From assembly GCA_964016885.1 (NCBI GenBank), contig OZ024751.1:48608001-48672000 (forward strand): a stretch of 64,000 nucleotides of DNA, given 5' to 3'. Below, piece after piece: positions 12,179-57,651 of this stretch. The position numbers and the translations under genes are program-made. Numbering within the stretch: position 1 is the stretch's first letter; each line of letters begins with the position of its first letter. The notes beneath the pieces are model-generated. The model searched no databases, was not told where the DNA came from, and worked only from the letters and a program-made list of their open reading frames with translations. The DNA comes from Eledone cirrhosa (lineage: Eukaryota).

Positions 12179-12403
12179 AACAAAGGAAATGTGGTAAGGA
12201 ACCAGATGGACCATAACGCACCGAAGTACTCAATACTTAGGGTAGTAGAGTGGGTAATAGGAACAAGTATGAGCCCGACGGCAAAGCTCAAGGCGTTTCG
12301 ACGGCTAATTTTTATTTATTTATTTTTATTTTTTTTTATTTTTTAGTCCAGAATTAGCCGTCGAAACGGCTTGAGCTCTGCCGTTGGGGTCCTACTTGTT
12401 CCT
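12179..12403. mobile_element. (AT)n-flanked half-hammerhead hairpin family copy
   Basis: ~80-bp conserved body plus inverted arms aggaacaagta...gacggcta / tagccgtc...tacttgttcct. Confidence 0.85.
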
Positions 12404-12499
12404 ATATATATATATATATATATATATTATGTACCCATAGTAATTCCATATAGATATATGTATTTATATATGTATGCAGAGTAAAGTGGTAAATGATAA

Positions 12500-12622
12500 G
12501 TTTATCCCAGGTTCAATCGGGGGTAACCACAGTAATTAAGGTACCCAGTACATAGCAGAGTATAAATATTTTCTCCCGAATGAAACAGTTCTAGTCCTGT
12601 AGAAGCCATTTCTATATTAAAT
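12500..12622. mobile_element. Rearranged relative of the 63531-63730 HHR element (3' half of the HHR at 12578-12604)
   Basis: gaatgaaacagttctagtcctgtagaa matches the 63.6-kb HHR; about 12505-12564 is the reverse complement of about 63666-63728. Confidence 0.7.
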
Positions 12623-13362
12623 ATTTTTTATATATATATATATATACATATATATACATATGTAGATATATACATATATGTATACGTATATACATATATA
12701 TATACACACACATATATATATACACATATATGAATGTGTGTATGTATCAAATTTATTGAGGAGTTTAACCCAGTCAAACATTTGAAAAAAAATTAGTATG
12801 CATAATTTTCGTTTTTGAAAGTTGAATACATTATTAGATAATTTGCACATTTAATTAGATATTGAAGCGGTTGTTTTTCTAAAAGATACCAATAAACAAA
12901 ATAACAAGTTTGAGCACTCTGGTAATTACAAAACACAAGATATTTCATTTATGTGTATGTTAATTTGTTAAAGTGAGTCATTTATTTTTGCAATCTTCAC
13001 TATTTCTGTGGATAGAAAGAATCTTTACTAAAAATTGTATTTTGTAGAGGTTGTTGTACAAACATGTAATAAATTAGATTTTATTATAATTTGATTATTA
13101 GCAGAAAAAATACGTCAAACGTATGATATCTGATTTGGTTTTTAGTCAATTTATATACTAACATTTTGAAATCGAAAAAACATTCGTGTTTAAAATCTTC
13201 AATAAATGTATAAATATATAAATATTGCTTAGATTGTATCCATGTTAATACTCAATTTATTGAAACGAAGAAACAAACTTTAAATAATGTTATCTTTAGA
13301 CGACATTGTCCAATAAACATACGTATGTAAATTATATAACTATGTATAAATTATAAATAATA

Positions 13363-13655
13363 TATATATTTTCTTTTGGTCGTTTTGGAAGCCTCAACAA
13401 TGCAAATGGGTAATTCTCAGGGTAACAAGATCTGGTGGTGAAGAGAGAGTTGTAAGTGAATGTAAAATGAGATGTATAGTGTTTAGAAGAACGTAGGAAA
13501 GAGCGTAAAAAATAGAAATAATAACACGAGGTAACTTATTTTTTACGCTCATTCTACATTCACTAACATCTCTCTCTTCACCACCGGATCTTGTTACCCG
13601 GAGAATTACCCATCTGCATTGTTGAGGCTTCCAAAACGACCAAAAGAAAATATAT
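13363..13655. repeat. Fold-back palindrome (~110-bp arms) with a nested inner inverted repeat; no HHR core seen
   Basis: atattttcttttggtcgttttggaagcc... / ...ggcttccaaaacgaccaaaagaaaatat; inner gagcgtaaaaaata/tattttttacgctc. Confidence 0.8.
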
Positions 13656-14514
13656 CTAATTATTTCACAATGCTTCAAGCAAACTTCAATACTCTCTTAT
13701 GATATATATATATATATATATATATAATTTATTAATTATATGACTATATATATATCATATAAATTTATATCATATGAATTATATAGTCATATATATTATA
13801 TAAATTATATAACTACTATATACATATCATTCAGTAAAACCAATTGCTCCCATTAGGACCCTACCCCTAATACTCTCAACATATCAACAACTACTTCTGT
13901 AGCAATTACTGGTATTGGGATGACGGAAGTCACCTGATTGGAATTGGTTTGTATAATAGATATTATTATATAATTTATATAATATATAAGAGTATATATT
14001 TCATATAATATATAAGGTTATATAATTTATATAATATATAAAGATTATATAATTTATATGAATATATAATTTATATATATATGTAATTATATAAGTTATA
14101 AATCATATATATATTATACTGTATAATATATATTATGTATATGGTTATATAATATATATTGTATATATTGATATATAGTTTATATGATATATATGCACAT
14201 ATAATTTATATAATATAGATATGTATGTAGCTTATATAACATATATGGCTACATAATTTATATTATACATATAATTCATATACGTATGATTATGTAATGA
14301 GCATGATATGTACGGTTATATAAACATATTTCACAGATATCTGACAATCTAAACTGGTTACATTCTGAAAAAAAGAATGTACAGATACATCAATACATTA
14401 CATAAATTCATACACACATACACATGTATATATATATATATATATATATATATATATATATATATATATATATATATATATATATATATATATATATATA
14501 TTTATATATATATA

Positions 14515-15012
14515 GAGAGAGAGAGAGCGAGGGAGGGAGAGGGAGAGAGAGAGAGAGAGAGAGAGAGAGAACGAATGAGACATAGGATTTTAGAATATAT
14601 CCCTGGAGAAGAAAATACAAACAACAGTTGTTTATTTCTAAATATGTATGTCTCTCTCTCTCTATATATATATATAATATATAATATATATATATATATA
14701 TATAATATATATATATATAATATATATATATATATAATATATATATATATATATATATATATATATTATATATATATATATATATATATATATATATATA
14801 TATATATATATATATATATATATATATATATATAGAGAGAGAGAGAGAGAGAGAGAGAAGGAGAGAGACATACATATTTAGAAATAAACAACTGTTGTTC
14901 GTATTTTCTTCTCCAGGGATATATTCTAAAATCCGGTGTCTCACTCGTTCTCTCTCTCTCTCTCTCTCTCTCTCTCTCTCTCTCTCTCTCTCTCTCTCTC
15001 TCTCTCTCTCTC
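14515..15012. repeat. Inverted repeat (~85-bp unique arms plus GA/TC tracts) centred on an (AT)n tract
   Basis: 14570-14660 is the reverse complement of 14862-14950. Confidence 0.85.
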
Positions 15013-55386: not shown

Positions 55387-55586
55387 NNNNNNNNNNNNNN
55401 NNNNNNNNNNNNNNNNNNNNNNNNNNNNNNNNNNNNNNNNNNNNNNNNNNNNNNNNNNNNNNNNNNNNNNNNNNNNNNNNNNNNNNNNNNNNNNNNNNNN
55501 NNNNNNNNNNNNNNNNNNNNNNNNNNNNNNNNNNNNNNNNNNNNNNNNNNNNNNNNNNNNNNNNNNNNNNNNNNNNNNNNNNNNNN
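55387..55586. other. Assembly gap (200 N)
   Basis: Run of N. Confidence 1.
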
Positions 55587-55713
55587 TGATTCCTTAAAAG
55601 ACATGTCTATCAGGCAGACAGAGATATTGAGGTGTGTAATTATGGAGAGAGCTAATGAGTTGTTTAGATAGATAGTTAGATAGAAAGAAAGGTAGATAGA
55701 TAGATAGATAGAT

Positions 55714-56740
55714 TTTTTTTATTTGCCACAAGGGCGCAAAAGAAACGGGGACAATACAAAGACACATACCGGGGATTTTGCATACAGTCGTGTAAAACTA
55801 TTGAAACAAACAATTATAACAATCGAAATCCCCAATAGTGGGGAGGCGCCACAAGTGGGTTGTTTAATACCCGTCGATAGAACAACCCTCAACTTCAAGA
55901 GCGTGTTGTGCAAGTGCACCTTTCTTCCTTTTGCTCTCTTCTTTAACCTACAGGCTTATAAACAGAGAAGGCCCAATCACTCGGGCCATTTTCGCTTCAT
56001 TCCCCACCTTTCAGTAAATTTACTGGAGTGCAGTGCCTCTCTCTCCACTCTGATTATCCTTCAAAAGTGATACTTAAAGAAGGGAATCAATTGTTGTCCG
56101 GAGAGAAAGGCATCTGTCCTCAGTCCTCTCAATCTCGTCCACCATATAACCCTCTTTCACCATAGCGACTGTACAGAGGAAAACCGCATCTCTTTCGTTT
56201 TTGAAAGAGGCTGGCGGTTTGATCCTTACTACGGACTCGGCAGTCAACTGGATTTGTCCCATACGCGACAGCAGTTCTGCATAGTTCCACAGGTCGCTTA
56301 CGCCCGGGCAGTGTACAATTGCGTGCAGACGGTTTCAATGTCCTGCTCTCATCTTGGACACGTCCCTCTTGGAAGGATCCCTGCCGGGGCGTACGTGCCT
56401 GTAGATCTTATCTCGAACGGGTAGAGCTCCTCGGTAACAGTAGCCAGGCCCGGGTGGAAAGTCCTACCGAACAGATTGGTGAGCTCGTCGTCTTCGACGC
56501 CTAGAGTCTCCCCGAGCACGTCGTCGCACTTTTAAAGTACTAACCCTCTATCGAATGTCGAAGTGGAGTCTCCACTGATTGCTGTGCCCGCTTAAGAGAG
56601 GACTATGAGCGCCTGGGCGCATTCAATGTGCCAGGCGCCTATCTTCTTCGGTCTTCGCTTGACCCAGGACTGCAGCTCCGTCAGCCAGACAAGTTGTGGG
56701 AAGGCCTGTCTCACAAACGGTGCCCACACCGGTTGGTCGT
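55714..56740 (-). mobile_element. Decayed Tx1/L1-type LINE 3' fragment
   Basis: Homologous to 59001-60140; frameshifted; 3' end gtggcaaataaaaaaa joins (TATC)n. Confidence 0.85.
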
Positions 56741-57120
56741 TCTGAGAGAGGGAAATTTAAGTAGGGCGGGGGGTGGGTGTGGGGTGGGGGTTGTTAGCGA
56801 TATCAATTAACATTTCCCTGTGAGTTGTCATGTAAACTTTGTTTTTATACACACGCACAAACAAGCCCATACACATATATATTTAAAATAATTGTTTCTA
56901 CTTTAGGCACAAACATGATTAATAGCGACTGCTTCGATATAACTGACATCACAAAGTAGGTGTTGAGTACTAATAACAATAATGATATATATCAATATAT
57001 ATATAATATATATATATATATATATATATATATACTCGTATATATATATAATATATATATATATAGATAGATATAGATATAAATATACACGGGTGTGTAT
57101 GATTGTGTATAGAAGATTAT

Positions 57121-57439
57121 ATTAATAAAAGGAATTCCAACTTTGTCTGATTTACTCGTTTTATTTACAATCCTTTAAAATTATAATGATATTATAATGA
57201 AATAGTATGGTAGAATATTAAATGTTCAGTGGTGACAGTCAAGTTGGCAATTTTCAATTGCAAACTTGACTTTCACCACTGAATATGAACCTGAAAATTG
57301 CGAAAGCATGAAAGTATTTGTTCAATTAACATTCAACATTTAATATTCTACCATACTATTTCATTATAATATCATTATAATTTTAAAGTATTGTAAAAAA
57401 ACGAGTAAATCAGACAAAGTTGGAATTCCTTTCATTAAC
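57121..57439. mobile_element. Nested fold-back palindrome with a decayed HHR (57286-57324, +)
   Basis: Outer arms about 57121-57226 / 57335-57439; inner hairpin 57225-57283; tgaac-CTGAAAA-ttgc-gaaa-gcat-GAAA-gtat-TT-gttca. Confidence 0.7.
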
Positions 57440-57473
57440 ATATATATATATATATATATATATATATATATAT

Positions 57474-57651
57474 AACGAAAGAAATGTGGTAAGGAACGAG
57501 GTGGACCATAACGCATCAAAGTACTCAATACTTAGGGTAGTAGAGTGGGTAATAGGAACGAGTAGGACCCCGACGGGCTGAGCTCAAGCCGTTTCGACGG
57601 CTAATTAGCCGAAAAAGCTTGAGCTCAGCCGTCGGGGTTCTACTCGTTCCT
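57474..57651. mobile_element. (AT)n-flanked half-hammerhead hairpin family copy
   Basis: Both arms carry the cgagtag variant. Confidence 0.85.

Follow-up and report, generated by a model that had tools for sequence, protein, structure and literature searches.

Short hairpin repeats of Eledone cirrhosa are truncated Penelope-like insertions whose arms may end at the start of the element's transcript

A 64,000-nt stretch of the Eledone cirrhosa genome (assembly GCA_964016885.1, contig OZ024751.1, positions 48,608,001 to 48,672,000 of the forward strand; hereafter the window) carries nine short and mostly two-armed repeats that hold only one half of a hammerhead ribozyme, and it raises the question of how such half-ribozyme hairpins are made. 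A sequence-only reading of the window had proposed that cDNA synthesis pauses within the ribozyme, that the native stem II hairpin then primes the second strand, and that copying runs back to a site where microhomology rejoins the (AT)n target. We find that the repeats are truncated insertions, each an inverted pseudo-long terminal repeat (pLTR) plus an 80-nt tail, of a Penelope-like element (PLE) with motifs of the Hydra clade, and that their arms mostly end at one fixed point inside the hammerhead, which is probably the 5' end of the element's RNA.

The tail is the most abundant part of the family. A pattern of 27 nt from the tail matches exactly at 35,857 places in the 3.0-Gb genome that was searched for all pattern counts, far above chance and against 0 for the reversed control. 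Copies reaching further upstream enter a 3' untranslated region (UTR) and then, in locus L133, a 710-aa frame with reverse transcriptase (RT) and GIY-YIG motifs (YRDD and VIY..AYIG), for which there are 402 full-length relatives at E<=1e-10 and no Pfam match at E<=0.1. The parent is a 3.5-kb unit composed of a 5' UTR, an RT and GIY-YIG open reading frame (ORF) with its AUG at +219, a 3' UTR and, at -62 to +33, the complete hammerhead, so the expectation that the ribozyme parent would lie downstream of a PLE ORF was correct. Coordinates of this kind are counted on the sense arm, where GCCGTCGAAA has its first G at 0, with the predicted cleavage between +28 and +29. A partial tandem (L144) shows the tail continuing into the 5' UTR and on to the AUG at +219, and head-to-tail arrays of four units have periods of 3,542 bp and 3,531 bp, for a unit of about 3.54 kb. 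Full-element arrays of this type lie at G000:C1:91476610-91487254 and C1:437200356-437210966. Inverted repeats occur in all 20 of the regions selected as opposite-strand core pairs, many of them flanking pieces of the ORF, and every parent subfamily has short copies of its own. A single ORF with RT and, at its C terminus, a GIY-YIG domain, tandem pLTRs, an inverted 5'-truncated copy and a one-sided tail are the features of endonuclease-containing (EN+) Penelope-like elements, and because the parent has this architecture, the window repeats represent the short end of a known inverted-pLTR-plus-tail insertion type.

The family appears to be new, and its motifs, together with an alignment of its RT by eye to that of Hydra-1_Obim, suggest placement in the Hydra clade. 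Judged against the accessible text of Craig 2021 (PMC8557442), it shares with Hydra-clade PLEs, including Hydra-1_Obim, the single RT ORF with C-terminal GIY-YIG, the change from DKG to DKT (here HSDKTGNLY), the CxCX5C linker, the endonuclease CxxC and CxH motifs, the absence of CCHH (from the 710-aa frame), a hammerhead in the pLTR and (TA)n targets. Insertion into (TA)n is seen in 9/9 window copies, and the sampled genomic tails are followed by TAT, mostly (AT)n. At the RWK position RLRWR is found, a conservative change. The unit of about 3.54 kb exceeds the usual Hydra-clade size of <3 kb, and the U3-A8 or C3.A8 core departs from the canonical hammerhead; in the portion of Craig 2021 available, the small size and the canonical core are usual traits and not diagnostic Hydra motifs. 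Hydra-1_Obim, as described there, is a separate family with a CTGAAGA core and a minimal stem III, whereas the parent has a U3-A8 or C3.A8 core, a 5-bp stem III, a length of 3.5 kb, RWR instead of RWK and tens of thousands of copies. The inverted-pLTR architecture, the clade motifs and the U3-A8 core are already known; the mechanistic evidence is new.

In an alignment of 48 long arms, which serves as the reference for the parent, the hammerhead is of type I, with three helices, G10.1-C11.1, GAAA and a NUH site. The core reads CCCC-TTGANAA-GYTCGGCTATTT, followed by a loop of ~33 nt and then by AAATAGCCGTC-GAAA; it has 2,457 genome matches, with all four bases at N7. GYTCGGCTATTT is the native stem II 5' strand (-50 to -39) and lies about 35 nt upstream of the position that GACGGCTA takes in the window, where the GACGGCTA before the apex is the inverted arm and not the native strand. 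The parent that had been predicted, CTGANGA-(n)-GACGGCTA, has 26 genome matches, none of them a family parent, and the 14 matches listed for a related parent pattern are junction products. Counted with patterns of slightly different length, the core variants are U3-A8 (TTGANAA, 2,457), C3.A8 (CTGANAA, 1,481), U3.G8 (28) and C3-G8 (10), the last being the CTGANGA core, present at the rate of ordinary decay. G8 occurs on about 0.7% of C3 and 1.1% of U3 cores, and hence there is no signal of covariation between positions 3 and 8. The ten CTGANGA copies were considered as compensatory covariation, and this was dropped since the counts of single variants fit ordinary decay. The minimum-energy fold is a three-way junction in one of three parents (z -2.4), the other two having z of -0.7 and -0.1.

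Where the arms end was mapped in 88 elements with 153 arms, drawn from 91 recovered among the first 100 tail matches on contig C1 after merging three second arms of doubly tailed elements into their elements. Ends were curated by hand because automatic end calling fails on AT repeats and palindrome centres, and the two arms of a single element are non-independent counts. The outer ends are fixed at TTCC/TAT (+48) and TTCGT/TAT (+128), and the TAT that both carry matches (AT)n, in keeping with the microhomology proposed earlier. The inner ends, whose tabulation had been suggested as a check, are strongly non-random: 11 lie beyond -60, 2 at -60 to -18, 8 at -17 to -14, 88 at -13 to -5, 10 at -4 to +5, 8 at +6 to +27, 8 at +28 to +30, 4 at +31 to +48 and 14 beyond +48. 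Exact genome-wide counts for one subfamily fall from 17,641 arms reaching -8 to 9,644 reaching -12 and 3,747 reaching -14, so that the steepest loss is just past -12. This sharp edge falls on the A of TTAGTC, an initiator-like sequence within loop II. Among the 48 long arms the site reads TTAGTC in 38 and TCAGTC in 7 (45/48 together), which resembles the invertebrate initiator TCAKTY. By a composite score for an initiator plus a downstream element, computed from consensus motifs at 1,300 positions in each of four copies, -12 ranks first in three copies and is tied first in the fourth.

Self-priming from stem II fits part of this pattern: a native stem II does exist, and the apexes cluster just past its 3' strand. 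The junction that it predicts, an inverted arm with the whole native loop after TTCGACGGCTATTT, is absent, since the pattern has ten matches (against 35,857 tails) and none carries the loop, nine being inverted arms with a point change and one a jump into the tail. No arm (0/153) ends at the stem II 5' strand (-50 to -36). The -12 end point also occurs in single arms and in direct head-to-tail jumps, neither of which forms a hairpin; a fixed RNA end accounts for hairpins, single arms and jumps jointly, and a hairpin primer does not. We regard a pause of the cDNA followed by self-priming and copying back to TTCCT as refuted for the bulk of the copies, and give next to no credence to the ribozyme stem as a second-strand primer.

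Two further observations bear on the nature of the -12 end. At junctions whose filler is >=2 nt, 15 of the 78 arms have an untemplated G at -13, as does none of the 48 long arms (Fisher p=5e-4). These junctions come from the first 50 of 2,707 double-arm junctions genome-wide in which both arms reach -12, and fillers of one nucleotide there are C or G in 10/11, although their arm of origin cannot be assigned. Single arms joined directly to (AT)n were counted by hand over the first 100 rows, which hold 95 distinct loci; 20 of these lack the A, and in the other 75 the base in front of A(-12) is T in 53, G in 13, A in 5 and C in 4. A copied cap usually leaves an extra G of this kind. The second observation concerns 41 arms that enter the 5' UTR, 7 of which start at -15 to -6 and about 18 of which extend far upstream. 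In 6/6 copies followed, selected for the former start, a point at -15 to -11 is joined directly to +219, +223, +230, +241 (twice, at one locus), +345 or +947, the layout being an inverted arm, a segment from -15 to -6 up to the jump site, a segment from -15 to -11 up to +48 or +128, and (AT)n. Eight such junctions just past the AUG were listed, three of them among these six copies.

We consider it probable that -12 is a capped transcript start and that cDNAs primed at both ends of the tail run off there, to be joined together or to jump. An internal promoter in the upstream pLTR would start a capped RNA at A(-12), and because of this start the RNA 5' end would bear only the 3' half of the ribozyme. 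The element's protein would nick both strands of an (AT)n target and prime cDNA at +128 and +48, comparable to PAc in vitro. At the 5' copy of these sites RT would copy only 140 or 60 nt before running off, often adding a C opposite the cap. Two such short cDNAs could then be joined by their 3' ends into an asymmetric hairpin, the joint showing trimming, microhomology or filler, and a lone cDNA could be joined directly to (AT)n. More rarely, a run-off cDNA would jump to downstream RNA and run off at -12 again, leaving direct partial tandems. The ribozyme half would be a passenger with no role as a primer. Elements of this scheme have precedents in the accessible parts of two papers: an internal TATA-less promoter within the Penelope pLTR (Schostak 2008, PMC2377424), and, for PAc, a tail delimited by two internal RT starts, cleavage and extension of both target strands and insertion that persists in ribozyme mutants (Frangieh 2024, PMC11167929).

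The same edge could instead reflect an RNA cut, a splice acceptor (TTTAG/TCC) or a structural stop. An AG is indeed present at -12/-11, a weak A-U helix is predicted across about -16 to -9, and PLE pLTRs often hold an intron, the 3' end of which abuts the hammerhead in D. virilis according to the available text of PMC4209133. Yet neither fillers nor jumps show a recurring fixed upstream exon, the T/C variation that occurs naturally at -13 preserves the initiator pattern, an extra G is unexpected from a cut, and -12 lies in the middle of a helix and not at the base of a strong stem. We therefore think this unlikely.

A second point is whether two cDNAs or one make the hairpin. The window copies, given by position within the window, illustrate the range of products:

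1711 to 1815, minus strand: degraded copy; tailed arm on the minus strand (+128 to about +56), joined without overlap to a short arm on the plus strand (about -3 to +25).
12179 to 12402, minus strand: two-armed; tailed arm on the minus strand to about -5, T-rich filler at 12312-12341 and a short plus arm from -15 to +48 (TTCC/TAT).
12342 to 12402, plus strand: short arm of the preceding copy, with the putative transcript start (A of TTAGTC, 12345), stem II 3' strand, GAAA, stem III, the cleavage position (C28, here T), stem I 3' strand and the putative first priming site.
16634 to 16792, minus strand: two-armed; joined at CGAC microhomology, with the tailed arm to +3 and the short arm from about +10.
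27517 to 27630, minus strand: two-armed; apex at the hammerhead cleavage position (+29/+30).
30269 to 30330, minus strand: lone short arm (-11 to +48), older and diverged.
34248 to 34361, plus strand: minus-strand short arm to -15 joined to a plus-strand tail fragment (+89 to +128); 15-bp duplication, the arms non-overlapping.
43967 to 44159, minus strand: two-armed; the arms stop at about -4 and -6 and meet through filler; the linker variant differs between the arms.
53247 to 53438, plus strand: two-armed; the arms stop at -6 and -7 and meet through a 5-nt filler; the plus strand bears the tailed arm.
53358 to 53438, plus strand: 80-nt tail of the preceding copy, between the fixed outer ends TTCC/TAT (+48) and TTCGT/TAT (+128); in the parent this continues into the 5' UTR.
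57474 to 57650, minus strand: two-armed; palindromic AATT apex at -4; linker like that of the C3.A8 subfamily.

All nine copies were found where the sequence-only reading had placed them, each adjoined by (AT)n (9/9). The family length of ~190 bp given there fits only 2 to 3 of the nine, whose lengths span 62 to 224 bp. The copies do contain the arm TAGCCGTC-GAAA-CGGC-loop-GCCG-TC-GGGG, and the description of it as following its own reverse complement holds for four copies (12179, 43967, 53247 and 57474, the short arm of the last missing 4 nt) and fails for 16634 and 27517, whose arms meet at the points given above, for the single arm at 30270, and for 1711 and 34247. The claim that the copies keep no more than the ribozyme's 3' half was confirmed for this type I hammerhead, all nine being without the 5' half or a complete core. 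No hammerhead is among the best 150 of 404 Rfam matches in the window, which are miRNA models on microsatellites. A further 17 loci in the 200 kb flanking the window have a similar look (untallied).

Among 62 short two-armed copies, the inverted arm extends at least 3 nt further 5' in 22 and the tailed arm in 17, and the two ends differ by no more than 2 nt in 23. Eight elements have a tailed arm that starts beyond +48 and has no sequence in common with the other arm. Such asymmetry favours two cDNAs joined at their 3' ends, although later one-sided deletions may mimic it. The arms mostly share subfamily alleles (a T/A site is discordant in 0/37 rows, which count both strands of about 19 elements), so both would normally be read from one RNA or one source locus. 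Two arms from two unrelated RNAs were considered and are unsupported, as the arms mostly share alleles. A full tail on both arms is found in 3 of 65 two-armed elements (L190, L232 and L267), and either target strand can therefore use the +128 site.

A single priming could also give two arms, if the RNA end at -12 is fixed and the 3' end of the first cDNA snaps back onto a microhomology present by chance and is extended to TTCC/TAT. The near-constant sharing of alleles, the 23/62 copies with arm ends within 2 nt and the frequent palindromic fillers (such as AATT and AAATTT; 10/50 junctions) would all follow from this. It is harder to reconcile with 16 elements whose inverted arm exceeds its supposed template by 15 nt or more at the 5' side, and with the 8 elements without arm overlap, since each exception would have to have lost sequence from one side afterwards. 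Short arms that end at +48 also occur singly (window copy 30270), the alleles of window copies 43967 and 53247 are discordant between arms, and the other TAT sites of the tail (+68 and +90) are not recurrent outer ends among the copies listed, by eye and untallied. We judge snap-back improbable.

Several points weigh against run-off of two cDNAs at a capped start. Both the start and the cap are deduced from sequence, and an untemplated nucleotide can be added without a cap; the extra G is seen in under a fifth of arms. Most arms end 1 to 7 nt short of -12, for which trimming must be assumed, and 8/153 continue 2 to 5 nt beyond it, for which minor starts or read-through RNA must be invoked. Paired arms of an element are not independent counts, and the six jump copies were pre-selected by an arm start at -15 to -6 (7/41, against about 18/41 far upstream). 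The shared arm alleles (discordance in 0/37 rows) are equally predicted by fold-back. The downstream element of the putative promoter matches at only 3 to 4 of 5 positions. In D. virilis, the Penelope start lies upstream of the hammerhead and not inside it, when the accessible portions of PMC4209133 and PMC2377424 are combined.

The hairpin might also be a non-autonomous unit copied whole, either a miniature inverted-repeat transposable element (MITE) or a retrozyme-like element, or the collapsed remnant of long inverted insertions. The very high copy number, the recurrence of some junctions and the existence of long inverted copies are compatible with this. Junctions are, against it, mostly unique and lengths continuous, short copies are specific to each parent subfamily, and collapse would yield neither a sharp edge with an added G nor direct jumps, so that we hold it very improbable. 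In the accessible part of a retrozyme preprint (10.64898/2026.07.22.740005), a non-LTR retrozyme consists of tandem units with a complete type I hammerhead in each; the half motifs here are dispersed and inverted.

Catalysis by the hammerhead looks dispensable for the spread of the element, as judged from its sequence variants. An amplified subfamily has an unpaired C3.A8 and almost always G at position 7 (1,481 matches in G000; loci L282, L285-L288, L290, L292, L295 and L296). Arm starts cluster at G29, the predicted cut, with 8 of the 20 ends within +6 to +48 falling at +28 to +30 (p=3e-5), and G29 starts were found at 33 of 57 loci with a second pattern, the design of which favours such starts. 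A linker associated with C3.A8, CCTACTCGT, accompanies it in 13/14 cases, and the G29 pile-up is equal there (13/20). The pile-up was set aside as proof of self-cleavage because it is equally strong in this unpaired subfamily; the G29 ends may reflect the predicted cleavage or an RT stop at the base of stem III. A recurrent deletion of ~23 nt between the GCCGTC repeats that flank GAAA and stem III (L185, L188, L258 and L266) is likely to be RT slippage across stem III.

In LTR elements, the minus-strand strong-stop cDNA is a short product made near the RNA 5' end that runs off and is transferred, and in L1 twin priming two primings at one target lead to an inversion. The proposed run-off is similar to both, with the differences that the primer would be nicked target DNA and not a tRNA, that there is no integrase or RNase H, and that both arms copy the same RNA segment; the parent belongs neither to LTR retroelements nor to L1. 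Among PLEs, the architecture in the available text of Arkhipova 2013 (PMC3846280) and Craig 2021 is the same, with an inverted 5'-truncated copy beside a pLTR, a one-sided tail, partial tandems, microhomology at 5' junctions and an Inr-like sequence in a pLTR. The tail is 80 nt here against 30-40 there, and most insertions of this family are stubs without an ORF that stop at one fixed point, with an added G. The accessible text of those papers contains neither an end map of this kind nor a model of run-off and jumping. PAc (Poseidon, Anolis; PMC11167929) is similar in that two internal RT starts bound its tail, both AT-rich strands are nicked and extended, and catalysis is dispensable; its RT starts lie within the ORF instead of the 5' UTR, and neither an explanation of inverted arms nor a start site in loop II was found in the part of that paper available. 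The Cercyon PLE hammerhead (Cervera and De la Pena 2014, PMC4209133, accessible portion) also has U3-A8 for C3-G8 and opposite-strand pairs 100-700 bp apart, and differs from this family, which has a full 5-bp stem III, a palindromic loop and a large unpaired C3.A8 subfamily. The literature searched, outside which most subscription papers fall, held nothing on a strong-stop step or a loop II start in PLEs. The tail motif GTATTGAG (+60 to +80, for example at window 53370-53395) also stands between two TAT ends in the Hydra entry that directly precedes Hydra-1_Obim in the accessible Craig 2021 supplement, by eye, and it is possible that it is a conserved protein-binding signal.

Other features of the window were noted by eye or as repeats. 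On the minus strand at 25546-27045, adjoining copy 27517, a 499-aa frame that combines RT (YVDD) and GIY-YIG motifs with a linker rich in cysteine belongs to a second, different Penelope-like family. Frames of 161 and 276 aa at 59320-60828 (minus strand) resemble the 3' part of an ORF2 of the long interspersed nuclear element type. A 21-bp minisatellite at 45786-47425 has 78 copies with 92% matches, and its minus strand is open for 510 codons; a 310-bp tandem repeat at 332-1672 (4.3 copies, 99%) ends at (AT)n just before copy 1711.

For annotation, these hairpins are PLE stubs and not MITEs, miRNA hairpins or a separate short interspersed nuclear element. With at least 35,000 natural end products, the family lends itself to mapping at single-base resolution, and the run-off model predicts a capped start at -12, run-off cDNAs of 60 and 140 nt, and jumps from them. 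The origin of tandem and inverted pseudo-LTRs and the purpose of the hammerhead are treated as open questions in the accessible text of Craig 2021 (PMC8557442). As a tentative extension, toward which we lean less than halfway, PLEs in general might replicate through a retrovirus-like strong-stop step, in which cDNA from near the capped 5' end runs off and is transferred to the 3' part of the RNA. If so, pLTRs and tandem arrays would arise by homologous transfer, and hairpin stubs would be left where transfer fails. The promoter would then be written in the hammerhead, with the initiator in loop II and CGAAA doubling as the downstream element, and the motif would therefore persist even where catalysis looks broken.

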